The notes: generated from the sequence alone by a model not told the origin. Counted from the first letter of the stretch, positions 41,231-62,677 are shown. The stretch: 64,000 nt of DNA from Polyangia bacterium (GCA_030429545.1 JAUIFF010000001.1:147599-211598), one strand, 5' to 3'. Program-made: numbers and translations.

Positions 41231-41244
41231 TAACTGAGCACGAA

Positions 41245-41886: not shown

Positions 41887-41958
41887 GATTCCTAGGCGAG
41901 GCTTTGTGGATACAATAAGGTCGCGGTTGGCTCGGTGGCGACGATGGTGCGTGCCGTA

Positions 41959-42125: not shown

Positions 42126-42149
42126 GCGTTGTCTACGGGTGTACTAATG

Positions 42150-45100
42150 TCAAAACTCGCCAGGCTGCCAGTCGAGCTCCGCAGACGAGTTGGCTTCGGG
42201 GTTGACTGTTTGGACCAGTAGCGATGCGGTTGCGCCCACCAGTGTGCTGCCCGTGAGTCTGAGCGGTGACCTTCGTCGCCGCGTCTGTGTCATTTTTGTT
42301 CGTTCCGAAGTGTGCACAGTGAGTTGTTCTTCGAGGACTGGCTCGCCAGTGTCAAAAACGACAGCTCGTTCGAGCTCGAGGACCCATTCGGAGTGTGGAG
42401 GTTGGTAGTGCACCGTTCGCGTAAAGGTTGCCGGGCGGACACAGCCCTCCTGCGTAGGTGTGGCACCAACGACTAGCTCAGGGGTGTAAAGCTTCTCGCC
42501 GCTTCGCACGAGCAGGGTAAATTCATCACGGCATCTCGTTGTTGCAAGTGCATCGATGCATCGACGTGTCGAGAGCACAAAGTAGTCGGCAGACTGACCA
42601 GGAAAGAACTCGATTGCGGTCACTGCGGCAGCCGCCCGCATCGAACCTAACGCGCGTACTCGAAGCTCGCGCGACGAAACCTCAACCAGCGCGACTGGGC
42701 CGAGCCCCTCACCGTGGATTGTTGCCAACTGGAGCCATACCAATTCAAGCCCGGGAGCTGCGTGTGAGCGGGTAACCCGACTGGACTTTTCGATACCAAC
42801 TTCGGGGTACTCAAACTCGATGTTGGGGTCGCAGGTGTCGGTGGGTGCAGGCCACACAAACAGCTCTCCAGTACAGTCCAACAGTTTTCCGGGAGCAGAC
42901 TGAAACTGACCGTGGGTTTCCGGGTAGCTGCGCGCAAGCAGTTCGTACCAGTGTGTATCTACAATATCGTCCGAGCTCTCGGGGAGCGTATGGGCAAACG
43001 TGAGTTGGCAAAGAGGGGCGTTCGTCGGCTGGCTCGGCGGCGGGGAGCAAGCTGCAAGGACCATCAACAGGAACAACAAGATCGCCGCGGGAAGGTTCTT
43101 ACCAGTAGGAGCGGGTGTGTTTGCGAACTGTGTCGGTGATTGTTGTTCGCTATCTGGCACCCTCCGCGTGCCGAAGTCGGCAGGCTCTACAGGTGTTTTT
43201 GGAGATTGTGTCGGGGGTGCATCTTGGACACTCGGTCTCCCAAATGTGACGTGCTTTACGGGTATGTTTAGGGGTTGTGTCGGGGGCTCGTCTCGAACAC
43301 TCGGTCTCCCGAATATGACAGGCTTTTGCGGGAACTGTGTCGGAGGTTCATCTCGAAGGTTCGGTCTAGCGAATGTGACAGGTGTTACTAGGGGTTGTGT
43401 CGAAGGTTCACCTCGAACACTCCGTCGAGAGAATGTGACGGGCTTGACAGGTGTCTGCGGGGACTGTGTCGGAAGTTCATCCCGAACTCTCGGTCTCCCG
43501 AAGGGCTGGACAGGCTCGACCAGGGTTTGTGTGACGTCTCCTGTCGGGAGACTTACTTTGGAGCGTTGTGGTGGGGCACCGGGGGGCTGAACGGGCTCGA
43601 CCAGAGTTTGTGTGGCGTCTCCTGTCGGGGCACTTACTTTGGAGCGTTGTGGTGGAGCACCGGGGGACTGGACAGGCTCGACCAGGGTTTGTGTGACGTC
43701 TCCTGTCGGGCCATCTACTTTGGAGCGTTGTGGTGGGGCACCGGGGGACTGAACGGGCTCGACCAGAGTTTGTGTGGCGTCTCCTGTCGGGCCACTTACT
43801 TTGGAGCGTTGTACTGGGCCGCCGGGGGGCGGGTGCCACACCTGTGGGTGCTCGCCATCTGCAACCTCCCCAAGTGTTTGAGTGACATCGCCTGCGGCCG
43901 TCGTGTCGTGGGGGCGATCCGGCAGCAGGCAGGCAGGTCGCTTGTGGGTTACCGAGTCTTCGCCTGCGGTGCGTGGGCGGTGAGCGAGGTCGCCAACCGA
44001 AACCGGCAAAAACCGACGGGAGTCAGTCGTGTGGTACAAACGCCCGCAGATCGAAGTATATGCATTTGCAAAGTTTTTGCCAAGGAGTGCACGGTTGAGC
44101 TCCTCGTCCTGCAGTAGTTGGGCAAGCCGACGCTTAAACAGTGCCCAGCGGGCGTGCACGCGCAATGGCCAGAGTTTCCATGGAATCGTCAGTCGCCCAA
44201 GTCGAATCGCGGTTTTTCTTAAACGCCTATCGAGGGCCTTGGGTGACAAACTGTTGAGCACTGCCCGAACGCTTCCCCGCAACCCTCCCAGCAACCCTAG
44301 CTGATGGGCCATCAGGGTTTTGTAGGCTTGATTCAGTGCTTGCAGTCGCGGAGCATTGGTACCCTTAGGATCGTATAAATAGCGTAGGACATCGTTGGGG
44401 TCCTTGGGGTGGGCAAGCGGGTTATTTGCCTGAAATGGCACAACATGGGCATGCCCGTGGGCGAAGTCGATAGCTCCATCGTGCAACCCGACCAGTGCCC
44501 GAGCGTGGGCACGGGCAACTGTCACAACCCGGGTTACAAACGCCGCAATTTCATCGGAGGTTTCGAGGTTTGTCTGATTCCCGGTGAGCTCGCGGGCAAG
44601 CCAGCGTAGCGCACGTCCCGAAACGACATCTCGGTGGTGCGTAAATCCGGTTGCTTCGGGGCGTGAGCGACTTGGACCGCTTGGACCACTTGGACCGCTT
44701 GGACCACTTGGGCCACGACACGGGCCCATCGAGCGAAAGGCCGGTTCTTTCGCCAGGACCGGAAGCGACTGGCGAAGTTGGGTAAAAACCTCGTGTTGCT
44801 GCGCAGGCGTCAAGTCTGCAGTTTGCTGCCGAAGTTTGGCCAAAAGTTGTTCGCAAGCTCCAAGATACTCATTGTAAAGCGGGGTGAGAGTCTCCAGGAT
44901 GCTGGCGTTCGTTCGCGATGGACGACGCCATACCGTTGTCGGTTGGGCTTCGCAGTGCACGTCGGATGGGCTGGGTTTGTCCGTCGACCACAGCATCGTT
45001 GGCTCGCTGGGCTTCGGCGCACCCATTGCCGAGCGGAGCTCCCGTTGCAGGCGTTGCGCATGGCAGTTTTCATTGGCCGTAAGCAGCTCGCCCGGCCCCA

Positions 45101-45401: not shown

Positions 45402-45403
45402 CG

Positions 45404-46288
45404 CTACTCCGGGTACCCTGTGAAGACCTTACTAGTGGGTGTGTGGGGAAGTTTGGTGCGCGACAGCCAGCTACGACCAAGGACGAGTTTGCCGACTTGC
45501 TGGTCGGAGCTGGCGAGGCTGCTTGGATAGACAGATACTCGTAGTGGGACGGTTTTCCCGGTGAGGAGCCGGCACTGCTTCGCCAGCGACTCACCAGCGA
45601 GCTGGTCAAAGATCTCACAGATACGGTCGACGGGCACGGCCGTGAATGTGATGGACAACCCCTCGAGCTGCTCGTGGCCAGAGCCTAGGCGAGCACAACC
45701 CAAGCGTATTTGCCCTAACCGGTGTGTTTGCCTGTGTTTGCCCGTTTGAATGCGGAGAGTTTGGTGCTCGACTCGGACCTTCCACCCGCGATTGCGAAAG
45801 TAGGTTGTCACCATCCAAATAAGTGCCCGCCGACCGCGACGTGCCCGGAGCCCGAGCTGAACGGCGAGTTCGAATCCCGGGAAGTCCACATCACAATGGC
45901 GAACGCTCGTAAATCCTGCTGCGCACAAAAACCGGCTTTGCCAGCGATCGACGGCTCCGCCCGTACACGGCTGTAGTGCTCGCACCGTGGTGACAAGCGA
46001 TACAACGAGATGTGTGTGGATGGCATCCAAGATGGCGCGGGTGGTGGGGCAATTACGTGCGGTCTGCTCGAGCAGCTCACAGAAGTCGGGTGCTAAGGGA
46101 CTGCTTTCTCCGGTGAGTGCAAGGAGCGGAGTAGAGACCGTGTACTCGGGGGACTCTTGCATGTGCCAGTCTGTTGTAGGGAACGCCTGACCCCGCGTGG
46201 TCACCCGCACTTTACGGCCGGACACGATGGCGCTAAACAGCGAAGGCCGGTTGAGACCCCGTCGAAATTTCATCTTGGCACTGTGCAT
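45404..46288 (-). CDS. tssG: T6SS baseplate subunit TssG (by synteny)
   Basis: 294 aa. Starts 5 nt after the tssF stop. Position and size fit tssE-tssF-tssG order. Sequence-level confirmation not possible by eye. Confidence 0.55.
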   Translation of the reverse strand: MHSAKMKFRRGLNRPSLFSAIVSGRKVRVTTRGQAFPTTDWHMQESPEYTVSTPLLALTGESSPLAPDFCELLEQTARNCPTTRAILDAIHTHLVVSLVTTVRALQPCTGGAVDRWQSRFLCAAGFTSVRHCDVDFPGFELAVQLGLRARRGRRALIWMVTTYFRNRGWKVRVEHQTLRIQTGKHRQTHRLGQIRLGCARLGSGHEQLEGLSITFTAVPVDRICEIFDQLAGESLAKQCRLLTGKTVPLRVSVYPSSLASSDQQVGKLVLGRSWLSRTKLPHTPTSKVFTGYPE

Positions 46289-46293
46289 GTTGA

Positions 46294-47949
46294 TTATAAG
46301 TGGAATTGGATGTTGTCGCGTAAACCCGTCACACGAACCTCGCACTCAACCTGGGTAGCGAATGAAACAGAGTCCGCAATCAGCACCTGAAGCACTCGGG
46401 AAAACACCCACGCATCGCCCCTACCTGCGAGGCATTCACTGGCGAGTTGAACCCTACACATTAAGACCTGTCTCACCTGCCCCCGGATGGCGCGGTAGAC
46501 AGGTTCGAATTCAGAGCGCTGAATAGCGGCGGCGAGTTTGAGCCCATGCGACCCGGGAACCATGAGTTTGATAGCCTGATCGAGCAAAGATTTCGACAGT
46601 TGAGCTGATTGCCGGCGGGCGTGCCATCCGAGGAGGTCCCAAGTTGGCCCGTAGTCGACGCACGGGGCGAGCCCGCGACTGACACGGGAAATGTTGGTCG
46701 CCGCGAGCATGGGTGGTGTATTCGCTGTGGGAACACAAATATCGCCGGTGCGAAGCTTGTCGAGGGCCTGGGGAGACGTTTGGCATAGGAGCTCCGTTGA
46801 AATTACATCTCCCGGCTCAAGGCTGCCCGAGGGCTCGAGCTGCAGTACCAAAAACGGCTCCCCGGGGAGGCGGGCAGTTGTATAGCGCCCAGCACATGCG
46901 TCTTTCGTCTCGTGTTGACGAGCGGGCAACCCCCGCACAAGAGGGAGGCGACCACGACTCGCGGGCCGCGAGACCGAGGCTTCCCGCACTGCAAACACCC
47001 GCGTATTTTCTCGAGTGGGCTCGAGGCAGTATTCGTGGCAATGCTCGACCATGGTGATCGGCTGTCCGCCGACCGCAAATAGGTTGACTGCTGGTACACA
47101 ACCGACGCGGAGAAAGTCTCGAAGTCCGTGTGCGCCCGAAGGTGTAGGGTTGTGGGAGAATAGCCGGAATTCGAGACTCTGGCCCTCTAGTTGTGTGAGT
47201 TGTTGCAGGCCATCGAGCTCAAAAAACAACAGGCTTTCAGGAAGGGCCGCGTACTGTTGCAGCAGCCGAAGAGCGTCTGGATACTCTGTGAGTTCAAAGT
47301 CGAGTGGTTGTAACTGACGGGTTTTGACTGTCTGAGCGGGTAGCACTCCCGCAGGTTCACCATCGATGAAGTACTCGACTTTGCAGGTGCGCCGGGTAAT
47401 GTGTTCGAAGATCGTTGCCGCGAGTCGATAGGGTCCGGCAACAAAGAACTCGATCGAACGGCTTGAAAACCGTTGCCGAGACAGGGCCAAACAGATCGAA
47501 AGATACGCTTGCCCATGTTGTTTGTGGACGAACTCGGTCGAAACTACCTCGATGTCGGGCACCGTGATGGGACGAGTTGTTGCAAATCGGCAGGACTCCG
47601 TACGTTGGTGCGAGGTTGCAACTTCCACACCTGCGGGCACGCCGAGCGCTCTACCTGCCGCCCCCCCACGTGGTTGAAACTCAAGTACTGTGATTGCGGG
47701 CAGCCCCCGGATGTAGTCCGGTGCGAACATCTCGGCTTGTTGATAGGCGAGCAGGCTACTTTCGATGGCGACACGCTGTTGCAGCGTAGCTGTTAGGTAG
47801 GCGACGCCCTGCAGTAGCTGCCGGATCTCGGGTCGGTAATTGTCTGGGGTTGCAAGGCCATGCGCGCTGTCGGGGAACTGTTCACCAAATCGGCGTGCAT
47901 CACCTGAGAGCTTCTCCAGCTCAGCGAGATATTGTTGCTCGAGTTTCAT
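46294..47949 (-). CDS. tssF: T6SS baseplate subunit TssF (ImpG/VasA family)
   Basis: 551 aa. N-terminus YLAELEKLSGDARRFGEQFPDSAHGLA...PEIRQLLQGVAYLTATLQQRV matches the conserved TssF N-terminal pattern (YL.EL..L...F...P..A..L...DP.VERLLEG.AFL). Confidence 0.75.
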   Translation of the reverse strand: MKLEQQYLAELEKLSGDARRFGEQFPDSAHGLATPDNYRPEIRQLLQGVAYLTATLQQRVAIESSLLAYQQAEMFAPDYIRGLPAITVLEFQPRGGAAGRALGVPAGVEVATSHQRTESCRFATTRPITVPDIEVVSTEFVHKQHGQAYLSICLALSRQRFSSRSIEFFVAGPYRLAATIFEHITRRTCKVEYFIDGEPAGVLPAQTVKTRQLQPLDFELTEYPDALRLLQQYAALPESLLFFELDGLQQLTQLEGQSLEFRLFSHNPTPSGAHGLRDFLRVGCVPAVNLFAVGGQPITMVEHCHEYCLEPTRENTRVFAVREASVSRPASRGRLPLVRGLPARQHETKDACAGRYTTARLPGEPFLVLQLEPSGSLEPGDVISTELLCQTSPQALDKLRTGDICVPTANTPPMLAATNISRVSRGLAPCVDYGPTWDLLGWHARRQSAQLSKSLLDQAIKLMVPGSHGLKLAAAIQRSEFEPVYRAIRGQVRQVLMCRVQLASECLAGRGDAWVFSRVLQVLIADSVSFATQVECEVRVTGLRDNIQFHL

Positions 47950-48353
47950 GGTTCGATAGGCAAAGTTGTTGAATAGTCAACGACCCGAAGGTGAAGCGGA
48001 GAAAGTGCGCGTAGACGGATAGAAAGTTGTCCTTGCGACCCCTGCACACGTGCAGTGACAACGACGTCACGAAGCCGCCCAGTTGGGGCGCAGTTGGTGA
48101 GCAACTCGATCTCACGAAGTCTCGGCTCTGCCCTCCGCAGCAGTTGTCGGAGGTTCGTTTCCAGACGCTTGTGTTCCACAGCAGCCGTGCGGCTTTCTGC
48201 GTTAATGACGAGGGCGTGACCATAAGCGGCTTTCCCCGCACCTGAGAAGGTCCAAAGCTGGGTTGAAATACTGGTGACGATTTGCTCCGCTGGGTCCACC
48301 GTAGATCGGGTGAATAGACTGAGTGGTTTTCGCCGAAAGACAGTGTTTTTCAT
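47946..48353 (-). CDS. tssE: T6SS baseplate subunit TssE (gp25-like), by synteny
   Basis: 135 aa. 4-nt overlap with the tssF start. Size and position typical. Confidence 0.55.
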   Translation of the reverse strand: MKNTVFRRKPLSLFTRSTVDPAEQIVTSISTQLWTFSGAGKAAYGHALVINAESRTAAVEHKRLETNLRQLLRRAEPRLREIELLTNCAPTGRLRDVVVTARVQGSQGQLSIRLRALSPLHLRVVDYSTTLPIEP

Positions 48354-48385
48354 GGGAAAAAGAGGGCCGGCTGGCCCTCCAATGG

Positions 48386-48883
48386 TTAGTTGTTCTTCGC
48401 CCAGGAATCCTCGTGCTCCGAATTGTGGCCTGAGCCATTGTAGATCCAGCGGATCGTATGAAAGACAAACGCAACTTCTTCAGTGGGCGGCTCGACCGAG
48501 CTCGCAGGGTCAACCGCGCTCGGCGAGTGACGTGCAATCGAAGAGATACGCCCATGGGAGATAGCGATCGTAAAGAATTGCTCCGTCGTTCCGTCGCCGG
48601 ATGGGCTCGGTCGATAGAACCGAAACTCGCCCTCAATTTCCTCATTGTTACAGAGTGCCTTCGCCAATAGGGGAGAGCTCGCGTCGATACGTTTTTGGAT
48701 GCGAATGGGCTCATAGGTACGGCGGCCGGTAGCCTGTCCGGTGCCACGTTCACGCGCGGTGCGAACCGCATCGTCGAAGCGTACACACTCGATTGAAGCG
48801 TCCCGTCCGAGCGACACTTGGGTACTTTCACCTTTAATGTCGGTGCCATTTGCGCGAAGAAAAAGATGTACTGATTCAGCCAT
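48386..48883 (-). CDS. hcp: T6SS tube protein Hcp (TssD)
   Basis: Start refined to MAESVHLFLRANGTDIKGEST... (166 aa). Hcp1-family pattern (I.G....H.G.I....F......E.....I.K..D.SSP.L..A...NEEI). First gene of the minus-strand T6SS operon. Confidence 0.8.
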   Translation of the reverse strand: MAESVHLFLRANGTDIKGESTQVSLGRDASIECVRFDDAVRTARERGTGQATGRRTYEPIRIQKRIDASSPLLAKALCNNEEIEGEFRFYRPSPSGDGTTEQFFTIAISHGRISSIARHSPSAVDPASSVEPPTEEVAFVFHTIRWIYNGSGHNSEHEDSWAKNN

Positions 48884-49077
48884 GGGAGAGTGATGATTCA
48901 GGTGCTTGAAGGTGTCAAACAAAAAATCCGAACTTTTTGATGTCCTAGATGCCGTCCTGTATTCGGGACAACGGGCCAGCGCTCCCTGATGAGGTGTGAG
49001 GTGATGTTTATAAGTGTTTGAAAATATAGAATTTGAATCTTGGTTTGAGAGTTGCTTGCATGGAAGTGGAGCAGACA
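48884..49077. promoter_or_regulatory. Divergent T6SS promoter region (hcp operon leftwards, tssJ operon rightwards), locally AT-rich
   Basis: 194-bp intergenic region between divergent operons. GC content visibly lower (tgtttgaaaatatagaatttgaatcttgg...). Confidence 0.5.
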
Positions 49078-49629
49078 ATGAAAGTAAATCTAGGTTCATG
49101 GCAAACACGTTTGAGGCGAGTGAAGTACCTCTATCTTATCGTGGGTACTTGTATTTCTTGTGGCCAGATTCAGGAGGCCGCTGTAGAGTCCCCTGCTTGT
49201 TCGGAAGAGCGGCGAGTGTTGCGGCTGCAGCTACACACGGGGGAACATATTAACCGTAGTCAATCAGGGCAGTCACTCCCGGTTCGGGTCACCGTGATTC
49301 AAAGCGAGTCCTCTCTATTGCCGTATGTTTTAGAGAAAGCTCTACAGCCGAGGGACATCCGCGATGTCGAGGAAGTTCTCGATACCCAAACGGTAACGCT
49401 ATATCCAAACGACGAATTCGTGCTTGAGGTGCCTCGTGAAGATGCCTCCGGCGTCGTAGCTGTGGCAGCTGAAGTTCGTGCTCCCCGGGGTGTTGCCTGG
49501 TTTGACGAGGTCGAGCTCGACAGCGACGGCTCCTGTCAGCCGACGAGCGTGACATCCGTAGTGAACCTTGATGAAGTCCGGGTCAGCATGACGCCATTTC
49601 GTCGGGACAGGAGTACTGGTAATGATTAG
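49078..49629 (+). CDS. tssJ: T6SS membrane-complex lipoprotein TssJ (putative)
   Basis: Start refined to MKVNLGSWQTRLRRVKYLYLIVGTCISCGQ (signal with Cys). ~183 aa. Immediately precedes tssK-tssL-tssM, the canonical position. Confidence 0.55.
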   Translation: MKVNLGSWQTRLRRVKYLYLIVGTCISCGQIQEAAVESPACSEERRVLRLQLHTGEHINRSQSGQSLPVRVTVIQSESSLLPYVLEKALQPRDIRDVEEVLDTQTVTLYPNDEFVLEVPREDASGVVAVAAEVRAPRGVAWFDEVELDSDGSCQPTSVTSVVNLDEVRVSMTPFRRDRSTGND

Positions 49630-50848
49630 CAGAAACGAACGGGTTGCGTGGCGTGATGGCATGCTACTTTTGCCACAGCACCTTCAGTATCAAGATAATG
49701 TCGTTTATCGACATCTGGCCCGCCTCGTCCAAGGTGCGCAGCCCTATCCGCACGGCCTCGTACGCCTTGACCTCGACGAATCTCTTTTGCTCGAGGGGCG
49801 CATCTCGATATCCTGGTTCGAGGCAGTTATTCCAGGCTTGGGGCTTACCTGGTGTGGTAGTCAAAGTGGGGAAGTACTCGGTCGTGAGCTGAACACTGAA
49901 GCTGATTTCGTCAAAGTCTACGTAGGTGTTCAAAATGCTGTAAGTAGGGTCTACCGGTCGTGCACGAAGAAAGTTTCAGATATAATCGAAACAGACGCGC
50001 ACACTGAAGTCGAGACTTTGGTTGATGATTTGCAGGTGCTAATCGGTGATGACGAGTGCCGGGGATTTCATGTGTGTCTGGTCGCCTGTTTAGAGCGGGT
50101 CGAAGGCCGTTTTCAGCTGAGTGAGGGGGAGGCCCCGTCTTCACTGCGCGTGGGGGCGGTGCAGAGTCTTCTAAGGAGGTTTCGCCGGGCCGGAAGCACC
50201 CTGGCGAGGGTCGTCGATGCGTTGCGTGCACGACCCGCGAGTCCGGGGTTGGGGAACGTGTTGGCGCCTTTGAGGGTTCGTCTCGAGCACCAGCTTGCGG
50301 CAAATGTTCACCCTTTCAGTGCTTGGTCGACGCTCGCGGAGGCGATTGCGGCGATGGATAGCGAGGCCAGCTTACCACTGCGTTACCGGCATCAAGCCCT
50401 AGGCTCGACAATGAAAGAAATCGAAACACAGCTTGGTGTGGTAACTGCGCAGTATCTTGAAACAGTGGAGACCGAGTTGGTGCTCGAACCACGCGACACC
50501 CACTCACTGCGCCTTGGGTTGACGGGCAAGGCCTCACTGATGGGGGTTGAGCGTGCACGCCTGATCTTTTACATGCGACGGGACGAGGACTCCTTAACAT
50601 GCGAGTCCTTGGCTCGGATATGTAAGTTTGCGCCGGAAGATAGCTTTGAGCAACGTCTGGACCGCGCGCTTCCAGGGGTGGCTCTACGCCCGAGTCGCGC
50701 CCGTTTGCAAGCGAACGAGCGGGTCCTCGAACTCGACAGTAAAAGTGCCGGTTGGCAGGAGCTACAAGCTGCGAAATCTGCAGCATTATTTGTCCCAGCT
50801 GAAGTGCTCAAGCGCGTCGAGCGGGTGAGTCTAGAACGCCTCATGTAG
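49622..50848 (+). CDS. tssK: T6SS baseplate subunit TssK
   Basis: 408 aa. N-terminus ERVAWRDGMLLLPQHLQYQDN matches the TssK signature (V.W.EGM.L.PQHFQQ.D). GGAG RBS. Overlaps the tssJ end. Confidence 0.8.
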   Translation: MISRNERVAWRDGMLLLPQHLQYQDNVVYRHLARLVQGAQPYPHGLVRLDLDESLLLEGRISISWFEAVIPGLGLTWCGSQSGEVLGRELNTEADFVKVYVGVQNAVSRVYRSCTKKVSDIIETDAHTEVETLVDDLQVLIGDDECRGFHVCLVACLERVEGRFQLSEGEAPSSLRVGAVQSLLRRFRRAGSTLARVVDALRARPASPGLGNVLAPLRVRLEHQLAANVHPFSAWSTLAEAIAAMDSEASLPLRYRHQALGSTMKEIETQLGVVTAQYLETVETELVLEPRDTHSLRLGLTGKASLMGVERARLIFYMRRDEDSLTCESLARICKFAPEDSFEQRLDRALPGVALRPSRARLQANERVLELDSKSAGWQELQAAKSAALFVPAEVLKRVERVSLERLM

Positions 50849-50865
50849 AGGAGATCGGGGATGCA

Positions 50866-51504
50866 ATGGTGAGTCTGTTTATTCAAGAAACCTCCCGCGA
50901 ACTGTGCGGAGTTGTTGCGTCTGTCCGGGGTGCTCAGTCGTTGGCCTGTACGCCCGAGGCGATCCGCCAGCTTGTCTTCGAGGCCTACAATAAAAGTCTG
51001 CAAACCGCGATAAGCCTGGGCTCCACCCGTGAGCGGGGGCGAGTTGTACTCTATCCATTTGTTGCTTTGGTCGACGAAGTCTTGTTGCGCGGCCCGGTCG
51101 AATTACGAGAGTACTGGCGAGCGAATCTCCTTCAGGCACGGATCTACGGGAATACGCGGGCAGGTGAGGACTTTTTTACGAGGCTGCGGGCGAGCTCAGT
51201 TCCGGAGGTCCGCTACGCGTATCTGCTCGCGCTTTCGCTTGGGTTTGAGGGAAAGTATGCGGGAGGCGATAGCAGTGAGCTCGTGCGTGAGCGTGAGCGC
51301 CTGTTTCGTCAGTTCGCCGAACGACCAACCCTCCATGCAAACCGAAGCTCGGAGCGACTCCAAAGTTCGCGTGTCGTCAGCCCAAGGTTCGTTGCATTTC
51401 CGGTGGCAGTTCTCGCGTGTGTCCTCATACACATCTACATGTTTCGCCGAGTCGAACAGCAAGTATCGCAATTTTTACAGTTTATCGAACACGTTTATGG
51501 GTAG
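50866..51504 (+). CDS. tssL: T6SS membrane subunit TssL (DotU family)
   Basis: 212 aa. DotU-like core (LYPFVALVDEVLL...YAYLLALSLGFEGKY) and C-terminal TM helix (FVAFPVAVLACVLIHIYMF). Confidence 0.8.
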   Translation: MVSLFIQETSRELCGVVASVRGAQSLACTPEAIRQLVFEAYNKSLQTAISLGSTRERGRVVLYPFVALVDEVLLRGPVELREYWRANLLQARIYGNTRAGEDFFTRLRASSVPEVRYAYLLALSLGFEGKYAGGDSSELVRERERLFRQFAERPTLHANRSSERLQSSRVVSPRFVAFPVAVLACVLIHIYMFRRVEQQVSQFLQFIEHVYG

Positions 51505-51512
51505 AGACAACG

Positions 51513-54500: not shown

Positions 54501-54887
54501 TATCACAACGGACAGGAAACATGGCACTACATCAAGTACAGTCCCACGCGATTACCTGCGCGGCTCTCAATCACTGGCAAGAATTTTGAGCAAACAATCT
54601 ACGGCGATGGCGAGTGGAGTTTGCTCCGCCTCCTCGACCAAGGTCGCGTTGTCGAGTCCGATGACAACCAGGTTGTCATTGTCGAGTTTCCGGTGCACGG
54701 ACTATCAAGCGACCACCCGCGGATCTCCATACGCCTGTTGGGAGGCGCTGGAGAGGTCGCCCGCCGCCGAGAGTTGGGCAGCTCCGGTGAGGGGTTGCTC
54801 GGGTTGTTTCGTAACCGAGTCAGTCAGCCTCCAAAGCGTCTGGCGACAAAATCAAAGGGCTGTCATGAAATTGCTGGCGAAGAGTAG
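51513..54887 (+). CDS. tssM: T6SS membrane subunit TssM (IcmF family)
   Basis: Start refined to MVIASIAILILLPWVGALIGWISF (TM helices). Walker A GPPGVGKTT. ~1124 aa. Large periplasmic C-terminal region. Confidence 0.85.
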   Translation: MVIASIAILILLPWVGALIGWISFKMAAVVALFIVLGCLATIGGRRLWEARTSRKLEVELLTSAERLDQDQSPDAQLKLEELRTSFAGTMRELRQSQLGGGGRRALYALPWYVVIGPPGVGKTTAIGRSGLKFPLRSATSPIRGIGGTRNCEWWLANEAVIIDTAGRYTADVEDHGEWLEFLGLLKRYRGRAPLNGVIVAVSTEHVYRQDEGELSRHARQIRTRIDEIQRQLGIVVPVYVMLTKCDLLPGFSEVFGELEKSKCDEAFGVTWDSGQKPLEGLLEQVQHTCLTRLQECPRLEDRDQIYRFAHNFGALLHSASQLIDETFATSAYEENPRLRGVYFTSALQEGSPIDDARGSLAQAFGVSLATSEAKPSVQRQYFLRRLFPEKIFTEAGLVARSARRSRRRATVRRATAIAMCACLAGLSLGSGLVARAVGLKVRVAERSLGEASVLLHRGQLSEGFRELELLHDVAREPAATTKVFPEIYSSSALKRIVAGVRQTRLEAVATFCVEPAIDELATELQGQPSRELLAAIQLLFHNTEQLVAFHDWYPWLVEQVASRTIDGCRQQDVAWYLRTTRGSLEPPEQLDRLVEAAKSQILTAEQQLLPPLSRLCAETDELDISLSQVIRDDATVVSEVDVPGCFTRAGRALVEERLAVLQTPSRFEASWVAPTPKRQAGWQRDLSELGDLYTQTYIRQWNDFVEGVSLREFADEQLPVVLRAYMREPGPVERVLKLVEQQTQFERGTSLQKLALPPTRSSARDTKISLAFVGLLSLAKGGDDEQASLVSRHREFTTRASDALAKLAGDPDAADSVSSELQELVVETQRLVAQHPQAAQALAQRLLVGPLRRAQVAASHSKGAWIQSRWCGDVVAPIEREIQKKYPFTRDTDDEVSGTAFAKLVGSRGYLWRFYTESLVSLLPETGRDGFRRSRQAGGRKLLRKSIESFYTSARDVQTSWGGGEAETPTLELELMIHPTPSVGSVHLQLGDKNYEYHNGQETWHYIKYSPTRLPARLSITGKNFEQTIYGDGEWSLLRLLDQGRVVESDDNQVVIVEFPVHGLSSDHPRISIRLLGGAGEVARRRELGSSGEGLLGLFRNRVSQPPKRLATKSKGCHEIAGEE

Positions 54888-55734
54888 ATATAAGCCGCTG
54901 TCTGGGTTGAAAACTCCAAAGCTGGGGTATTTCGGCAAGGTTCCCTCACACAATGAGTTTGTCTCACACAACTTCTCCGGCGGTGTCGGTCGCGATATGT
55001 CGAAGTGTTTTGAGTTACTCTGGCAGTCTTGCGACGCGCATGACCACGTAAAGTTTGTCCTCCACCGGCACAGGGGTCGTGCCACAATGAGTGGCGTTTG
55101 CAGCGTTAGCCACGACAAAGTTGGACGGAGGGCACCATTTATTCGCTTTGCGATCCTGCCACAGTATCGTCGGGGTCAAGTTGTGCCTTTTTTGTTGTCG
55201 AGCTGGTTGTGCCAGGCCCACCGTCAGATTCCAGTAGACAACGCCCAGGCCGCTGGAGAGTTGGCACGTCGAGAAGTGATTGTGCGTCGTCAGCTACGGG
55301 AGATGTTGACATGGAAGTTGCCAAACGGGCTGAGCGGGGACGTTCTGGCAATGTCTCCCTCCGAGCGTGACTATGCATTTGCCTGCCTTTGGCAGGCGAG
55401 CCAGCGCATTCTCAGTCCTGCGGACATCGGATTTAGTCTCGAGCTTCCCGCGCCAAACGTTCTTGCTCAAACATTTTGGCACTACTATTGGCAGTCCCTG
55501 CTCGAACACACAGACCGAACAATAATTTTTTTGTGGAACGACTACTGTTCTACGATTATAGTTCAGCCCGTAGGACGAAGTCCGAACCTCGCAAGGTGGC
55601 GGCTTACGACTCCGGGGGAGGAAGCTCGCCTCAGGGTTGGGCAGGGGCTAGTAGCATCGTGGCAACAGATAGTTGAGCGCCGAGAAACAACTTTGCAGAG
55701 CACTACAGACGAGCTTGTTGACAACTTGAAGTAA
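54865..55734 (+). CDS. tagF: T6SS-associated protein TagF
   Basis: ATG at 54865, 23 nt inside the tssM 3' end. N-terminal GYFGKVPSHNEFVSHNF matches the TagF signature (GWFGKLPSRGDFV). 289 aa. Confidence 0.7.
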   Translation: MKLLAKSRYKPLSGLKTPKLGYFGKVPSHNEFVSHNFSGGVGRDMSKCFELLWQSCDAHDHVKFVLHRHRGRATMSGVCSVSHDKVGRRAPFIRFAILPQYRRGQVVPFLLSSWLCQAHRQIPVDNAQAAGELARREVIVRRQLREMLTWKLPNGLSGDVLAMSPSERDYAFACLWQASQRILSPADIGFSLELPAPNVLAQTFWHYYWQSLLEHTDRTIIFLWNDYCSTIIVQPVGRSPNLARWRLTTPGEEARLRVGQGLVASWQQIVERRETTLQSTTDELVDNLK

Positions 55735-55746
55735 TTGGAGAAAGTA

Positions 55747-56265
55747 ATGACTAAAGGAAATTCAGTCGCGCCAACAGAGCGTGTCAATATTCGCTATAAA
55801 AGCCACGTTGGTGAGGCCCAAGAAGAGGTTGAGCTGCCACTCAAGATCCTGGTCCTTGGCGACCTGACGGGTTCCGAGGACGACCGTGTTGTCGAGGAGC
55901 GCAAACCGGTTCGGGTCACGCCAGACAACTTCAACGAAGTTCTTGGGGCTTCCAATGTTCGGGTCAACTTGGACGTTACAGACCAGTTGCGAGCAGGTGC
56001 GGCCGGCGAGAAGTTGCCGGTTTCGTTACACATAAAAAAGCTCAGCGACCTGACCCCCGACGGGATCGTCGCGCAGGTGCCAGAGTTGCGTGAGCTATTG
56101 GCACTACGCAATGCCTTGAGTTCTTTGCGTGGGCCCCTCGGTAACCGGCCCAACTTCCGAAAGCGGTTGCAGCAGGCGCTATCGCAGCCGCAATTGCGAG
56201 ACGAGCTGCGCAGGGCCCTCGCAGAGGGAGAGAGCGGAGGCCAGACCGACGCGAGCGATGAGTAA
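55747..56265 (+). CDS. tssB: T6SS sheath small subunit TssB (VipA)
   Basis: GGAGAAAG RBS then ATG 55747 (the track's TTG is at 55735). ERVNIRYKSHVGEAQEEVELPLKILVLGDLTG matches the TssB core. Confidence 0.85.
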   Translation: MTKGNSVAPTERVNIRYKSHVGEAQEEVELPLKILVLGDLTGSEDDRVVEERKPVRVTPDNFNEVLGASNVRVNLDVTDQLRAGAAGEKLPVSLHIKKLSDLTPDGIVAQVPELRELLALRNALSSLRGPLGNRPNFRKRLQQALSQPQLRDELRRALAEGESGGQTDASDE

Positions 56266-56337
56266 GCGTAGGTTCTCTGAACGTCGCGGTGTGGAACATG
56301 CCGCAGATATTCCCAACCAGAATCTTTGGAGCGTGAT

Positions 56338-57819
56338 ATGGAGAAGACAGTTCAAACACAATATGCAGATAAGCCGACGACGGCACCGATTCTAGATGAG
56401 TTACTCGGCCACGCGAGGGTCGATAAAAACGATGCGGAAACCTATGCAGTCGTGCGTCAGGGAATGGGGGCGTTTGTCGAGCGTTGGGGCGAGGCGAGTT
56501 CAATGGGAACAAGTCGCGTCGATGTACAAGCTGTCGACTGCGTGATCGCTGAGCTTGACCGACGGATCTCTGCTCAGGTCAATGAGATTCTGCATACACC
56601 GGGTTTCCAAAAAATTGAATCTGCGTGGAGGGGTCTCAAGTTTCTCGTCGACCGTGTGGATTTTCGCGAGAATATCGAGGTTGAGGTCGTCAATCTGTCC
56701 AAGCAGGACCTCCGTGAAGACTTTGAAGATAGCCCCGAACGGGTAAAGTCGGGGTTGTATCGAATGGTCTACTCCTCGGAGTTTGGGACCCACGGGGGGA
56801 AACCTTACGGTCTACTTGTTGCAAACTACGACTTTGGTCCGGGGGCGAGTGATCTCGAGCTGTTGGCAGACTGCGCCGCCGTTGCTGCCATGGCCCACGC
56901 TCCAATGATCACAAATGCTGCCCCCGCAATGTTCGGAGCGAGTTCATTTGCCGAGGTTCCGCGCCTACGCGACCTTCGTTCGTTGTTTGACGGTCCGCAA
57001 TATGCCCGGTGGCAATCACTGCGTAGCAGTGAAGATGCTCGTTACTTGGGAATGTGCATGCCACGTTTTTTGCTGCGGCAACCCTACGATGCCGTCGATT
57101 TGCCTTCCCGCACGTTCTCGTTCAATGAGGAGGTTGCAGGGGAGCACGAGAACTATCTGTGGGGCTACGCCTCCATGGCATTCGCCAGCCGGGTCGCCGA
57201 TTCGTTTGCGAAGTACCGTTGGTGCCCCAACATTATCGGGCCGCAATCGGGCGGCGAGGTGCAAGGGCTACCACTGCATCACTACCACGCACTAGGCGAG
57301 TTGCAAACGAAGATTTCGACGGAGGTACTGATTTCAGAAAGGCGTGAGTTTGAGCTGGCAGAGGAGGGGTTTGTCTCGTTGGTGTTTCGCAAGGGTGCCG
57401 ACAATGCCTGTTTCTTTTCGGCCAACTCGGTGCAAAAGCCACGGGTGTTTGCAAGCGATGAGGAGGGGCAAGCAGCCGAGGCGAACTACCGTTTGGGAAC
57501 GCAGCTACCATACATGTTTATCATGACGCGGCTGGCACACTACCTTAAGGTTTTACAGCGTGAGCAGCTCGGGTCGTGGAAGGAGCGGGCGGACCTCGAG
57601 CGCGAGCTCAACCGCTGGCTCAGCCAATACGTCGCCGACATGGAGAGCCCCGCACCAGGAGTACGTTCGCGTAAACCCCTACGCCAGGCTTCGGTGGAGG
57701 TGGAGGACGTCAACGGACAGCCGGGTTGGTACCGGTGCCACCTCAAAGTTCGGCCACACTTCAAGTACATGGGAGCGTCTTTCACCCTGTCGCTGGTCGG
57801 TAAGCTCGATCGAGAATAG
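56338..57819 (+). CDS. tssC: T6SS sheath large subunit TssC (VipB)
   Basis: About 493 aa. Conserved ESAWRGLKFLVDRVDF..., C-terminal region and length typical of TssC. Start at 56338 (GGAG RBS) or 56326. Confidence 0.9.
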   Translation: MEKTVQTQYADKPTTAPILDELLGHARVDKNDAETYAVVRQGMGAFVERWGEASSMGTSRVDVQAVDCVIAELDRRISAQVNEILHTPGFQKIESAWRGLKFLVDRVDFRENIEVEVVNLSKQDLREDFEDSPERVKSGLYRMVYSSEFGTHGGKPYGLLVANYDFGPGASDLELLADCAAVAAMAHAPMITNAAPAMFGASSFAEVPRLRDLRSLFDGPQYARWQSLRSSEDARYLGMCMPRFLLRQPYDAVDLPSRTFSFNEEVAGEHENYLWGYASMAFASRVADSFAKYRWCPNIIGPQSGGEVQGLPLHHYHALGELQTKISTEVLISERREFELAEEGFVSLVFRKGADNACFFSANSVQKPRVFASDEEGQAAEANYRLGTQLPYMFIMTRLAHYLKVLQREQLGSWKERADLERELNRWLSQYVADMESPAPGVRSRKPLRQASVEVEDVNGQPGWYRCHLKVRPHFKYMGASFTLSLVGKLDRE

Positions 57820-57847
57820 ATGTAACTGAAACGCGTGGTAGGTTGAT

Positions 57848-59275
57848 ATGGATGCAAATACACCTGTTACCGATGATGTGTCGGCGTGGATCCAGCCGAT
57901 TGGTGTTGACACTCCCGCCGGAGAAGATGCTCGTTATGGGGCTAGATTTGTCCATCTGCGTAGTTTGATCTCGCAGTTAGAAAGCCCAAGTGGTGAGCCT
58001 GTCGATTGGCATCTCGTAGCCGAACTTGCTGCTGGGATCCTCAAACACGAAGCGAAGGACCTACAGGCTGCCTGTTATCTCGCTATTGCCTGGGCTCGAA
58101 CGGATTCGACGGCAGGCCTATTACGCGGCCTGACATTGCTCGACCTCCTGACGAGAGCATATGCAGATGTCATGTTCCCGTCGCCAACTCGCTTGCGCCG
58201 GCGCGAGCGAATTATGGCTTGGTATGTCGGTGAGTTGGAGCGTTTGAGCACTGGGCAAGCCACCGAGCTAGGCGTGTGGGGCAGTCCGAGTCTCGAGATA
58301 CTTCCGCAGGTTTTTGAGCGCCTAGGGGTGCAGGGTCCGAGCCTTCGGGGTTTGCATCGAGCGCATGAGCGACGACGCGTGTCGCCCAAGCAGCCGCGAG
58401 AGGCTCCCAAACCAAAGCCCGCAGCACGACCTTCAAGCCCGTCAACTCAGCCGACTACAGTTGACGTGAGCACCTTCGAGGAACCGCGAAAAGCACATCT
58501 TGCGCTCAACCAAAAACTTGTCTCGATGAGTCACAGGTTACGTGCCGCCGATCCAAAGTGTCCAGCTGGTTACCAAGTGTTGTGCTTTGGACTTTGGAGT
58601 CACCTCTGTGCTGCAACACCAGCTGTCACTCGCCCGCTAGCAACTGCTCCACTCGATCGCCTGCTACAGTCACAAACGTGGCTCCCTCTCGTGGATGAGG
58701 CGGTTGCGAAGCTCGTACAGGCGCGTTTACAGCTTGAGTTTGCCGGCTACGCGGTTGTCGGTCTTGCGTCCCTCGGGGAGAGCTATCGAGACGCTGCTGC
58801 GGCGTTGACAATCGCAACAAAGTCTTTGTTGTTACACGTACCGGGCTTGCAGCAAAGTGCGGTCGAGCGTGCAACGAACCCGGAAGTTGTTCAATGGTTA
58901 ACCGACCTCACAACTGTTAAGTCTGCCGAGGAGGAGCACTCTTCCCCGAGCGAGGCGTCGCCAGTCGCACAGCCAACAAGCCCCCGCGAACGATTCCTCC
59001 ATTACCTCGACTTTGCCACCGACCTTGTCAATCGTGGCAAACTAGAGCACGGCGCCATGACGTACTATGGGCTTTGGCGCGAGGCGGAGGCAAAAAATCT
59101 CGTGCAGTGGGAGCCCGAACTTGTGGTGCGTTGCCTCCAAGGATACTTGGCAGCGTGTCGAACAAAAACGATTCACACGCGGGGGGAGCTCTCACGCGTG
59201 TACGAGCGACTTGCCCAACTGTCACCACAGATATTCGCCGCGCAGTCACCCGAAATTTTTCAGGTCGCCGGGTAA
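57848..59275 (+). CDS. tssA: T6SS protein TssA (ImpA N-terminal domain)
   Basis: 475 aa. ImpA_N pattern: WIQPIGVDTPAGEDARYGARFVHLRS...DWHLVAELAAGILKHEAKDLQAACYLAIAWART...GLLRGLTLLDLL. Confidence 0.85.
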   Translation: MDANTPVTDDVSAWIQPIGVDTPAGEDARYGARFVHLRSLISQLESPSGEPVDWHLVAELAAGILKHEAKDLQAACYLAIAWARTDSTAGLLRGLTLLDLLTRAYADVMFPSPTRLRRRERIMAWYVGELERLSTGQATELGVWGSPSLEILPQVFERLGVQGPSLRGLHRAHERRRVSPKQPREAPKPKPAARPSSPSTQPTTVDVSTFEEPRKAHLALNQKLVSMSHRLRAADPKCPAGYQVLCFGLWSHLCAATPAVTRPLATAPLDRLLQSQTWLPLVDEAVAKLVQARLQLEFAGYAVVGLASLGESYRDAAAALTIATKSLLLHVPGLQQSAVERATNPEVVQWLTDLTTVKSAEEEHSSPSEASPVAQPTSPRERFLHYLDFATDLVNRGKLEHGAMTYYGLWREAEAKNLVQWEPELVVRCLQGYLAACRTKTIHTRGELSRVYERLAQLSPQIFAAQSPEIFQVAG

Positions 59276-59336
59276 GTTGAGTAGGGCGTTTAGGCCAGGC
59301 GTTGCGTGGCAAATCGTTAGAGGAAGGTAGGTTTTT

Positions 59337-61640
59337 GTGAATAGCGTAAATACGATAGATTTAGTCGCATGGGAGATCGAGCTTCCGCAGCGCAAGCTCG
59401 TGCTGCACGTTCGAGCGGTAGAACTACAAGAGGGGGTGTCTGCTCCCTACCGCGCAAGGGTCGAGTGTATTCAGGTCAGTGGCGAAGACCTCGGCGCCGC
59501 GGCGAACGAGCAAGAGTTTGAGCTACTCGGCGAGAACGTGTTTCTCACGCGTACACGCGGAAACCTTCGTCAAGGGTTTAGTGGAATCATCGTTGGTTTT
59601 ACGACCCTCGGAGTCACCCCGGGCCATCACAAAGATGGATCGTGTCCGGTGGTCCAACTCGAAATTGGCCCCGCGATGGTTCAGCTGCAGCATCGGCAAC
59701 ACTCACGGGTGTTCCAGGGACAGTCTTTGGTCGATATCGCCACACAGGTGCTGCAGGAGGGTCTTGATCCGTTTGCACGGGAGGTCGAGTGTTCACTTGC
59801 AGGCTCGTTTCCAAGGCGTGAAATGGTGGTGCAGTACGAGGAGTCGGACCTCGCTTTTGTCGAGCGTTTGCTCGACGAAGCCGGCGTCGACTACTTTTTT
59901 AAGCACCCTCCCGGGGAACCAGAAAAACTCGTGTTGGTGGATGCTCTCGGCAACGATGGCGAGGTAGCGACACTCGCGGGGTCCGGAAAGCTCGTGGTGG
60001 CAGGCGAGGATGCTGTTCGTAACTTAGTCGAAGGTGTATTTACACTAAAGCTCGCGCGTCAGGCCGTGCCAGAACGGATCGAGGTACGCGGGCGCGATTG
60101 GACGCGTCCCGATTACACCATCACGGGGGAGGCCGGCAAGCAGTCCGGCCACCACACGCGTTACTTGCACGACGGGCGTGTATCCCCCGGGCAGTACGGC
60201 GACGGCTCGACCTATAGCAGTGACGAAGCCAGCACGCGTGCCAGTATTGAGTTTGCCCAAAGCACCGCCAGTGGCATTGTTTTGGTGGGCGAGTCGAATG
60301 CGATTGGGCTGGTGCCCGGCCAACGCATCGAGGTGCTCGGACATCAATACGATGGGTTGGATGCAACCTATATCGTCACGCAGGTTGAACACACTGCCCA
60401 GTGTCCCGTGGAGGAGCTCGATGTCGAAGGTGGAGCGGCAGACTACACCAATCGGTTCAAGTGCGTCCCACTCGGGGCCCACTGGTCGCGGCCGCACCGG
60501 AGCCGGCCGGTCATCATGAGTATCCAAACTGCGACGGTCGTCGGCCCTGAGGGCGAAGAAATCCACACGGACGAGCACGGAAGGGTCCAGGTCCGGTTTC
60601 ACTGGGACCAGGCTGCGGGCCTACCCAACAACCAATACTCCGCGTGGATTCGCGTGGCGCAGGCGTGGTCTGGGGCAGGCTTTGGCGCTGTGTTTGTGCC
60701 ACGAGTTGGTACCGAAGTTGTGGTCAGTTTTATCAACGGCGATCCCGATCGTCCCCTCGTTACCGGGTGTGTCTATCACACCGCGTCACCGATGCCCGTC
60801 GATATGCCCGCCAAGAAGTCGCAATCTGTCATACGGACCCGCTCCACACCGGGGAGCCGCGGTTACAACGAATTGCGCTTTGAAGATGCGGCGGGGGCTG
60901 AGAAAATTTCCATGCATGCACAACGAAATCTCTGCGAGGTTGTCGGTAACGAACATGAAACCAGGGTTCGCGGAGAGCAGCGTAATTTCGTCGACAAGGC
61001 GCAGAAAGTGGTTGTTGGTGCCAGCCAAAGCATCCAGGTCGAGGGCCACCGTCAGTTGACCGTGGGAGCTGGGGAAGAGGTCATGATTAAGGGTGGGCGC
61101 GTCAGCGAGGTGGAGCAGACAGATTTTTTGCACGTCGCTGGTGCACGTCGCACGGTCGTAACCGAGGGCGAACAGCACTTCGTGGGCGGGATTTTTAACC
61201 AGGTGGTCGACGGCCCTCGTCACGACGAGGTCACCGGCATATACAACATGCAAGTGAACGAAGAGGGGGTCTTAAACTGCAAAGGGGGGTGGGAGACCGT
61301 AAGTCCCAAGATCGTGCAACTCGCCTGCCGTGAGAGAGATGGTGAGGGCCCGACACTTTCCCTCCAACCCAAACACGCAGCCCTCACGGTTGGTCAATCG
61401 GGGACGACCATCCAGCACTCCGGAGTTGTCGAAGTTGTTGCCTCAAAACGGTTATCTTTGGTGTGTGGGAGCGCCCGGATCGACATGTCTGAGGACGGTA
61501 CAATCGAGTTGTCGGAATCGAAGTCGGGAACATCGAGGATTCTCCTGCGGCCGGGCACAGTCCAAACGCAGTCGCTCAACCTGAAATCTGAGGCGATGAA
61601 TACCAACTCGATACAGGGCACGGTGGTACGAATCAATTAG
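59337..61640 (+). CDS. vgrG: T6SS spike protein VgrG (TssI)
   Basis: GTG start with GAGGAAGG RBS. 767 aa. gp27-like N-terminal half and gp5-like beta-helix with WSGAGFGAVFVPRVGTEVVVSFINGDPDRPLVTGCVYH. No obvious C-terminal effector domain. Confidence 0.85.
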   Translation: MNSVNTIDLVAWEIELPQRKLVLHVRAVELQEGVSAPYRARVECIQVSGEDLGAAANEQEFELLGENVFLTRTRGNLRQGFSGIIVGFTTLGVTPGHHKDGSCPVVQLEIGPAMVQLQHRQHSRVFQGQSLVDIATQVLQEGLDPFAREVECSLAGSFPRREMVVQYEESDLAFVERLLDEAGVDYFFKHPPGEPEKLVLVDALGNDGEVATLAGSGKLVVAGEDAVRNLVEGVFTLKLARQAVPERIEVRGRDWTRPDYTITGEAGKQSGHHTRYLHDGRVSPGQYGDGSTYSSDEASTRASIEFAQSTASGIVLVGESNAIGLVPGQRIEVLGHQYDGLDATYIVTQVEHTAQCPVEELDVEGGAADYTNRFKCVPLGAHWSRPHRSRPVIMSIQTATVVGPEGEEIHTDEHGRVQVRFHWDQAAGLPNNQYSAWIRVAQAWSGAGFGAVFVPRVGTEVVVSFINGDPDRPLVTGCVYHTASPMPVDMPAKKSQSVIRTRSTPGSRGYNELRFEDAAGAEKISMHAQRNLCEVVGNEHETRVRGEQRNFVDKAQKVVVGASQSIQVEGHRQLTVGAGEEVMIKGGRVSEVEQTDFLHVAGARRTVVTEGEQHFVGGIFNQVVDGPRHDEVTGIYNMQVNEEGVLNCKGGWETVSPKIVQLACRERDGEGPTLSLQPKHAALTVGQSGTTIQHSGVVEVVASKRLSLVCGSARIDMSEDGTIELSESKSGTSRILLRPGTVQTQSLNLKSEAMNTNSIQGTVVRIN

Positions 61641-62633: not shown

Positions 62634-62677
62634 AGAAGAGCGTAGGTAGGTTCCGCTCGCCGGTCTGCCGAACGACT

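Follow-up and report, generated by a model that had tools for sequence, protein, structure and literature searches.

Gene content of the island

The window analysed here is a stretch of 64,000 nucleotides from a Polyangia bacterium (GCA_030429545.1, JAUIFF010000001.1:147599-211598), and the system in question is a type VI secretion system (T6SS) without a linked gene for the unfoldase ClpV (TssH). Judged from its sequence, the region 41245-62633 is a T6SS-i island, intact and of distinct composition, from a Nannocystaceae-like myxobacterium. Two divergent operons contain 12 genes of the T6SS core together with tagH and tagF, identified by Pfam, NCBIfam and profile comparison (Table 1). From the listing of open reading frames (ORFs) and the Pfam/NCBIfam assignments, the order of transcription on the minus strand is hcp, tssE, tssF, tssG, tagH, and that on the plus strand is tssJ, tssK, tssL, tssM, tagF, tssB, tssC, tssA, vgrG. 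Gene starts were adjusted to the gene calls on identical Logan contigs. A preliminary description, made from the sequence alone, had placed these genes at the same coordinates and its assignments are borne out, but the island is wider than the bounds given there, the extra genes being a lipoprotein gene beyond tagH and a gene for a 313-amino-acid (aa) protein beyond vgrG.

Support is strong for TssC, TssB, TssF, TssK, TssM, VgrG and Hcp, and weak but significant for TssG, TssJ and TagF. TssE is hard to recognize: it has no PHROG or PADLOC match, and its assignment is backed by an hhalign probability of 87% against Myxococcus/Nannocystaceae TssE, by an aligned gp25/TssE EPR motif, and by its position between hcp and tssF. 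The Walker A motif of TssM is intact (GPPGVGKTT at aa 116). VgrG has a C-terminal extension of ~160 aa with no PAAR or effector domain match in Pfam.

The island has the TssJ/TssL/TssM membrane complex of a T6SS-i (Pfam T6SS-SciN, DotU and IcmF; TIGR03352 and TIGR03349), the baseplate proteins TssE/F/G/K with a VgrG spike (TssG being weakly matched and TssE assigned by profile, EPR motif and synteny only), the Hcp tube, a TssB/TssC sheath with a recycling-domain N-terminus, and TssA (Pfam and PDB matches). The PDB matches of the sheath are to the Myxococcus xanthus and Vibrio cholerae sheaths, N-terminal helix included. The IglA/IglB-type sheath and the non-canonical membrane and baseplate parts that define the Francisella-type T6SS-ii are not found here. 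What the locus does not encode is the dedicated AAA+ unfoldase TssH/ClpV, one of the 13 components regarded as the T6SS-i core.

Functions missing from the locus

All large ORFs of the 64 kb were scanned with Pfam, and no protein with a Clp_N, AAA_2 or ClpB_D2-small domain was found; the sole AAA+ protein in the window is Lon (6327-8738). A ClpV fragment comprising the N-domain and AAA1 of a cluster-linked Myxococcus protein had no tblastn match in the window or in the sister contig described below. No Pkinase, PP2C or PAAR domain occurs in any scanned ORF of the window, a cluster-linked serine/threonine (Ser/Thr) kinase domain had no tblastn match in the window, and no TagQRST homologues are present among the scanned ORFs. 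Six-frame fragments of at least 60 aa from the immediate flanks (40359-42149 and 62634-64000) gave zero Pfam matches at E<=1. The six-frame scan for PAAR was confined to these flanks, the distal 40 kb being covered via the larger ORFs, and a regular-expression search for the PAAR motif returned only off-frame noise. ClpV, PpkA, PppA and PAAR are absent from the cluster and its surroundings, much as the preliminary description had said of the 64 kb, the statement on PAAR holding for the scanned ORFs and the flank fragments. PAAR genes are often unlinked to T6SS clusters. Of the minimal set for the threonine phosphorylation pathway (tagE/ppkA, tagG/pppA and tagH) the locus contains tagH alone.

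Two other kinds of candidate were considered and rejected. Lon and DnaK do not qualify as cluster-linked substitutes for ClpV, being housekeeping proteins encoded 33-36 kb away in an unrelated neighbourhood, and the 1083-aa TagH protein is not a disguised ClpV, having no P-loop domain.

Table 1. Genes and intergenic region of the T6SS island (window coordinates)
Feature	Position	Strand	Evidence
conserved lipoprotein gene, 213 aa	41245-41886	-	sister ORF 58% identical; signal peptide ends LLASAC
tagH, 1083 aa	42150-45401	-	Pfam FHA 4.9e-10, T6SS_FHA_C 5.5e-15; TIGR03354 7e-19
tssG, divergent	45404-46345	-	Pfam T6SS_TssG 6.6e-07; TIGR03347 3.8e-05, below cutoff; synteny
tssF	46294-47949	-	Pfam T6SS_TssF 1.6e-50; TIGR03359 2.3e-53
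tssE, very divergent gp25-like	47946-48353	-	Pfam GPW_gp25 E 0.003, below cutoff
hcp (tssD), 165 aa	48386-48883	-	Pfam T6SS_HCP 2.8e-21; TIGR03344 1.5e-27; Logan gene call
divergent intergenic (promoter) region between operons	48884-49059	.	read directly
tssJ, lipoprotein	49060-49629	+	Pfam T6SS-SciN 5.6e-08; TIGR03352 2.6e-07
tssK	49622-50848	+	Pfam T6SS_VasE 2.7e-28; TIGR03353 7e-41, above cutoff
tssL (DotU, short form)	50866-51504	+	Pfam DotU 8.9e-25; TIGR03349
tssM, 1124 aa	51513-54887	+	Pfam IcmF-related_N 5e-77, IcmF-related, IcmF_C
tagF	54865-55734	+	Pfam TagF_N 3.4e-08; TIGR03373 1.3e-09
tssB	55747-56265	+	Pfam T6SS_VipA 6.6e-48
tssC, 493 aa	56338-57819	+	Pfam VipB 2.9e-119, VipB_2
tssA (ImpA_N + VasJ type)	57848-59275	+	Pfam ImpA_N 2.6e-21, T6SS_VasJ 1.4e-14
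vgrG (tssI), 767 aa	59337-61640	+	Pfam Phage_GPD, Phage_base_V, Gp5_trimer_C
conserved 313-aa gene after vgrG	61692-62633	+	47% identical to 323-aa sister gene, same position

A sister lineage and the edge of the window

Is the missing clpV simply cut off? The window stops merely 1.4 kb after the last cluster gene, and a clpV of the same cluster might lie just past position 64000. The other NCBI member of the 90% cluster of TssC is on a metagenome-assembled genome (GCA_964621785.1, contig CAZUPD010000095.1, 30,096 bp), hereafter the sister contig. This contig carries a complete island in the same gene order with both flanks visible and without clpV. Its left side reads TopA-like gene, hydrolase, lipoprotein, tagH, tssG, tssF, tssE, hcp, and its right side tssJ, K, L, M, tagF, tssB, C, A, vgrG and a 323-aa gene. 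The 4 kb past this homologue of the 313-aa gene contain an EF-Tu-like GTPase gene, two small ORFs and a coenzyme A-transferase gene, and the sister contig carries no clpV, kinase or phosphatase, tblastn with ClpV being negative there. The left flank of the window is syntenic with that of the sister (hydrolase 80% and TopA 88% identical). On the right, a 2-kb Logan contig (L092), from the same sample as an identical cluster, carries the window's end on to ~64.9 kb (+0.9 kb). The ORF at 63392-64000, continued at 556-2088 of this contig, encodes an unrelated protein, anchored in the membrane and 510 aa or more in length, with neither a Pfam family nor an AAA+ domain; its gene is convergent on the island.

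A third member of the lineage, on a JGI contig (L093), has a TssC that is 81% identical and keeps the core order unchanged between tssF and tssC; the contig ends short of the slot downstream of tssG, and the absence of clpV from that slot is visible in two members, the window and the sister. Profile searches of the genome contigs with the 313-aa protein and TssM as queries found no relative. The missing clpV is real rather than an artefact of the window edge, and is common to window and sister; that the gene lies just outside is largely refuted by these flanks and can be given hardly any credence. The preliminary description had named a clpV immediately outside the window as the finding that would make this an ordinary cluster, and none was found in the sister's flanks or up to ~64.9 kb. 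It had also called the flanking genes unrelated, which is true of the right extension as well, although that view had rested on 1.4 kb and on a cluster that has since gained the lipoprotein and 313-aa genes.

The island also stands apart in composition. The G+C content at third codon positions (GC3) of all 16 island genes is 0.52-0.66 (mean 0.60), versus 0.69-0.80 (mean 0.75) in flanking genes, and the sister contig has the same contrast (island 0.58 versus 0.74). Together with the syntenic left flank, the low GC3 shows that the island differs in composition from its neighbours while its place in the chromosome is conserved: either its composition is foreign or its genes follow another codon regime.

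Conservation between window and sister is very uneven. Hcp (89% identical), TssC (87%) and the flanking TopA (88%) are much alike, and TssM (50%), TssF (43%), TssK (39%), TssG (35%), TssJ (32%) and TssE (23%) are less so. Nevertheless, none of the 16 genes is broken, either in three independent samples or in the sister lineage, and reading frames that stay open at 23-89% protein identity point to purifying selection and hence to function. These data bear on the idea that the island is a decaying or inactive remnant in which the loss of clpV was a stage of pseudogenisation. The great divergence of TssE, TssG and TssJ, which score below curated cutoffs, would fit such a history, as would the atypical GC3 and the 23-50% identity of baseplate and membrane-complex proteins between genomes whose TopA is 88% identical. 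But neutral decay at such divergence would have wrecked the reading frames, which are uninterrupted in every sample, and would not sit well with the conservation of Hcp and TssC; we consider a decaying island very improbable.

Position of clpV in related clusters

All close TssC and TssM relatives that were found are from Myxococcota. Sequences from Myxococcaceae, Polyangiales and Nannocystaceae share 65-69% identity with TssC; outside the three-member lineage identity does not exceed 26% for TssF or, over full length, 30% for TssM. The position of clpV was read in a comparison set of 80 metagenomic TssM loci, from a TssM-alignment metagenome scan with generic patterns that yielded only distant TssMs. 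In all clusters where both genes are visible, clpV directly follows tssG (L010, which is Myxococcus, L016 and L029; TssC 57-68% identical). In three more loci (L024, L054 and L067) clpV is near the tssM-upstream end, tssF and tssG being undetected in those loci, and two others (L028 and L071) have clpV fragments at their edges. In the window lineage the slot after tssG, where relatives carry clpV, is filled by tagH and the lipoprotein gene. Since clpV follows tssG in the relatives and tagH follows it here, loss or relocation of the linked clpV is a derived, lineage-specific state.

The closest sheath is that of the M. xanthus-type T6SS-i (MXAN_4800-4813; L010, Myxococcus sp. K15C18031901), whose TssC is 66-67% identical and shares the N-terminal LLDE[IL]L helix. 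The comparison with M. xanthus, which the preliminary description had suggested, upholds the likeness of the core set (TssJKLM, TagF, TssA/B/C, Hcp, TssE/F/G and VgrG are shared) but not of the arrangement. In Myxococcus sp. K15C18031901 three vgrG genes are followed divergently by tssJ-K-L-M-tagF-tssA-B-C-hcp-tssE-F-G-clpV, so that hcp-tssE-F-G-clpV comes after tssC on the same strand, whereas in the window the hcp-tssEFG module has the reverse orientation and forms a divergent operon. Moreover, tssA precedes tssB in Myxococcus but follows tssC in the window, where vgrG follows tssA. The Myxococcus clpV (873 aa; MXAN_4813 in M. xanthus) is directly after tssG, in the place of the window's tagH and lipoprotein gene. 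The window's TssF and TssM are ~27-30% identical to those of Myxococcus.

The docking helix of TssC and sheath recycling

If the system is functional, what dismantles its contracted sheath? Residues 18-23 of TssC (ILDELL; window 56389-56406) form a ClpV-docking helix motif. In phmmer alignments against PDB the segment ILDELLGHARV (aa 18-28) aligns with LLDEIMAQTRI of VipB and LLDEILSEAKL of M. xanthus. The VipB counterpart, 19-LLDEIM-24, is the experimentally defined ClpV-binding helix (PMC4239648), and the window's TssC has an N-terminal helix that belongs to the LLDE[IL][ILM] class of ClpV-served sheaths (LLDEII-type helix; Forster et al. 2014), as do the TssCs of the clpV-linked metagenomic clusters. 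The helix is identical in the sister TssC; residues 1-17 cannot be aligned between the two. The best PDB match of TssC is M. xanthus TssC at 748 bits, and the weakest sheath match is Francisella IglB (269 bits), which has no similarity to TssC before residue 65. TssC proteins that carry the motif co-evolve with ClpVs whose groove is aliphatic (PMC4239648, PMC5048182); the groove for TssC is formed by an extra alpha-0 helix of ClpV N-domains, unlike other Hsp100 N-domains (PMC4239648). Indirectly, these observations point to continued recognition of the sheath by an N-domain of the ClpV type.

The retention of the docking helix favours an unlinked ClpV-type unfoldase, with ClpB as the second candidate. 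We put at roughly one in two the probability that a ClpV-type unfoldase encoded elsewhere disassembles the sheath. The predicted machine would consist of the island's TssJLM membrane complex, TssEFGK-VgrG baseplate and spike, Hcp tube and TssBC sheath, with TssA and the regulators TagF and TagH. It would still fire and recycle, its contracted sheath being dismantled by an unfoldase of the Hsp100 family whose gene lies at another place in the genome, most likely an unlinked ClpV-type protein that would dock on the conserved N-terminal helix of TssC.

Several points weigh against an unlinked ClpV. No clpV was located in the window, its right extension or the sister contig. Further, clpV genes are stated to occur specifically within T6SS clusters (PMC10433429), so that orphan clpV genes are not the rule, and in Campylobacter jejuni the authors, working with the incomplete strain-108 genome, had detected no ClpV homologue so far (PMC3667781). 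Conservation of the TssC helix could reflect some other constraint, for example the way the recycling domain packs when the sheath is extended, and the proteins with which the motif was compared were ClpV-served sheaths and IglB, a set that includes no T6SS-i lacking ClpV genome-wide.

The second candidate is housekeeping ClpB, which would disassemble the contracted sheath as in the Francisella T6SS-ii, tssH having been truly lost. There is good precedent, for Francisella has no clpV and requires ClpB for dynamic T6SS activity (PMC5481754, PMC10433429), and ClpB has also been proposed for the ClpV-less C. jejuni cluster (PMC3667781). Moreover, clpV is missing from the locus in both members of the lineage (window and sister) in which the slot downstream of tssG can be seen. 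However, the window's TssC has a VipB-type docking helix under evident constraint, to which Francisella IglB has nothing comparable at its N-terminus, and it is the alpha-0 helix that sets ClpV N-domains apart from those of other Hsp100 proteins (PMC4239648). Disassembly by ClpB is accordingly a possibility that we hold to be doubtful.

A further reading is that the system has no dedicated recycling. Firing would then be infrequent, and contracted sheaths would be diluted, degraded or slowly fall apart. The island encodes no unfoldase, and clpV mutants of V. cholerae still fire productively on occasion and kill to some extent (PMC10433429, PMC3667781), but loss of ClpV in the H1 system of Pseudomonas aeruginosa abolishes Hcp secretion (PMC10433429), a sheath that cannot be reused is costly to build, and the docking helix is conserved. 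We regard this as improbable.

Distal clpV, ClpB and ClpV-independent recycling were the three options raised in the preliminary description, and they are the right ones; the conserved docking helix argues against the most exotic reading. The choice of Bacteroidota as a model for ClpV independence does not stand, for Bacteroidota T6SS-iii loci carry clpV. An unlinked ClpV, if one exists, would make this case an ordinary one; if none exists, the case is clearly more interesting. Natural T6SS-i lineages without linked clpV show how sheath recycling can be outsourced, and the present lineage is a useful comparison: its relatives keep clpV after tssG and its own sheath keeps the docking helix, which makes the question of orphan ClpV versus ClpB directly testable.

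Other systems without a linked clpV

ClpV-less T6SS-i are already known from Campylobacter and Helicobacter; the variant described here is new and belongs to a poorly sampled myxobacterial lineage. The C. jejuni and Helicobacter hepaticus systems are of the TssJLM type, with 13 conserved genes that include TagH and without ClpV, and have been found experimentally to be functional (PMC3667781). The preliminary description had called a TssJLM-type system without linked clpV uncommon and had omitted this closest precedent. The likeness is one of gene content: these organisms are of another phylum and presumably of another T6SS-i subclade, and the Campylobacter TagH (35 kDa) has no reported membrane or periplasmic extension, unlike TagH of the window.

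The Francisella T6SS-ii is likewise a contractile T6SS without clpV in the locus, and is a precedent for an unfoldase acting in trans. The window differs from it in having canonical TssJ, K, L, M, E, F, G and A, and in having the N-terminal docking helix of TssC, of which Francisella IglB has no counterpart.

The TagH fusion and activation

The most unusual extra feature of the island is TagH, which is fused via a membrane helix to a domain of a T6SS-associated lipoprotein family. The FHA domain (aa 25-91), whose GR...SxxH...NG residues can be seen in the sequence, is followed by T6SS_FHA_C to ~aa 495, Pro-rich repeats at ~aa 504-768, a transmembrane helix at aa 769-786 (window 43044-43097) and a Cys-rich periplasmic C-terminal domain of ~295 aa (42153-43043). 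Alignment shows the transmembrane helix and C-terminal domain to be conserved in the 802-aa sister protein. The Pro-rich linker, in contrast, is found in the window only and is missing from the sister TagH; it is encoded by in-frame tandem repeats at 43181-43830 and 44670-44711 (81 nt x4, 60-69 nt x2-3, and an 18-nt GPS repeat, from Tandem Repeats Finder). Short-read Logan contigs break within this repeat region.

An exhaustive phmmer search of 1.84 billion representatives with the C-terminal domain gave 72 matches, of which 70 are free proteins of ~190-400 aa, most of them of ~300 aa; fusion to an FHA protein is confined to the window/sister lineage. The N-termini of four free homologues were read and all four have lipoprotein signal peptides, and one free homologue is encoded directly after tssC in a clpV-bearing cluster (L016, 19173-19988). 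None of ten scanned free homologues matches a Pfam family, and the C-terminal domain of TagH itself has no PHROG or PADLOC match. Its AlphaFold single-sequence model was too poor for a fold search (predicted local distance difference test, pLDDT, 35). From these matches TagH is a fusion with a T6SS-associated lipoprotein-family domain.

The separate lipoprotein gene at 41245-41886, whose start and lipobox were read from the sequence, has a sister counterpart directly after tagH (L007 15177-15905, 58% identical). It is also 25% identical (E 2e-05) to a lipoprotein adjoining tssJ in a Nannocystaceae cluster (L011 6545-7177), and has no Pfam, PHROG or PADLOC match. The automatic gene call on the sister contig missed this gene and called an antisense ORF instead.

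How might such a system be activated? The closest regulatory likeness is with the P. aeruginosa H1 system (TagQRST-PpkA-Fha1-PppA and TagF): the window has TagH (FHA) and TagF, and its outer-envelope lipoprotein element tied to TagH is reminiscent of P. aeruginosa TagQ (PMC13584744). The window differs in having no PpkA, PppA or TagQRST, and in that the lipoprotein-family domain is fused to TagH via a transmembrane helix. The preliminary description had thought it worth remark that TagH and TagF occur without PpkA and PppA, but this is an ordinary, common state, described in V. cholerae, Escherichia coli O157 and Yersinia pestis (PMC13584744). What is not ordinary is the architecture of TagH.

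Activation would probably proceed via TagH and TagF, with any phosphorylation coming from an unlinked Ser/Thr kinase, of which myxobacterial genomes encode many. The TagH fusion and the second lipoprotein gene next to it hint at direct trans-envelope control via TagH and the lipoprotein; this is inference only. If so, the fusion would suggest a kinase-independent, trans-envelope route of T6SS activation that is not described among T6SS accessory factors. A combined version, in which the lineage is truly without ClpV (using ClpB or no recycling) and a membrane-spanning TagH replaces kinase activation, its periplasmic lipoprotein-family domain and the adjacent lipoprotein together sensing the envelope or cell contact directly, seems to us unlikely.

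Promoter region, 313-aa gene and flanking features

The intergenic region between the operons has no sigma-70-like site. A sigma-54-like TGG-N8-TTGCT element (TGGTTTGAGAGTTGCT, 49041-49056) is just upstream of tssJ, but the sister's intergenic region does not conserve it and the window has seven similar matches, so it was not relied on. An alternative start (MKVNLG) with a GGAG Shine-Dalgarno sequence lies downstream of this element.

The 313-aa protein encoded after vgrG may be a VgrG adaptor or cargo candidate. It has no Pfam, NCBIfam, PHROG or PADLOC match, and its AlphaFold2 single-sequence model is too poor for a fold search (pLDDT 47), only a helical stretch at ~185-265 being confident. 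Right after this last island gene is a ~120-bp tandem duplication (62678-62908, 85% identity), inside which Logan contigs end. A second array, at 40500-41230 between the AraC gene and the island, has a unit of ~185-203 bp in 2.6-3.5 copies of 85-94% identity and is absent from the sister contig. The two are unrelated to each other and neither has an Rfam match, nor was there any Rfam match in 40-64 kb.

The gene adjoining the island on the left encodes an AraC-family regulator (39039-40358); the sister contig has no such gene next to its island. T6SS regulators of the AraC type (TagK) have been described in Xanthomonas (PMC13584744). The other ORFs of the window encode ParA, ParB, a lamin-tail-domain protein, Lon, DnaK, a penicillin-binding protein transpeptidase, a response regulator, a histidine kinase, a tryptophanase-like lyase, patatin, Sua5, an extracytoplasmic function (ECF) sigma factor, TPR and DUF4215 proteins, a YkuD protein, TopA and an alpha/beta hydrolase. 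An ORF antisense to dnaK (9064-10881, minus strand) has a strong Pfam match (E 1e-159) to PF10712, 'NAD-specific glutamate dehydrogenase'; we take this family to be a spurious antisense translation of Hsp70 and not a gene.

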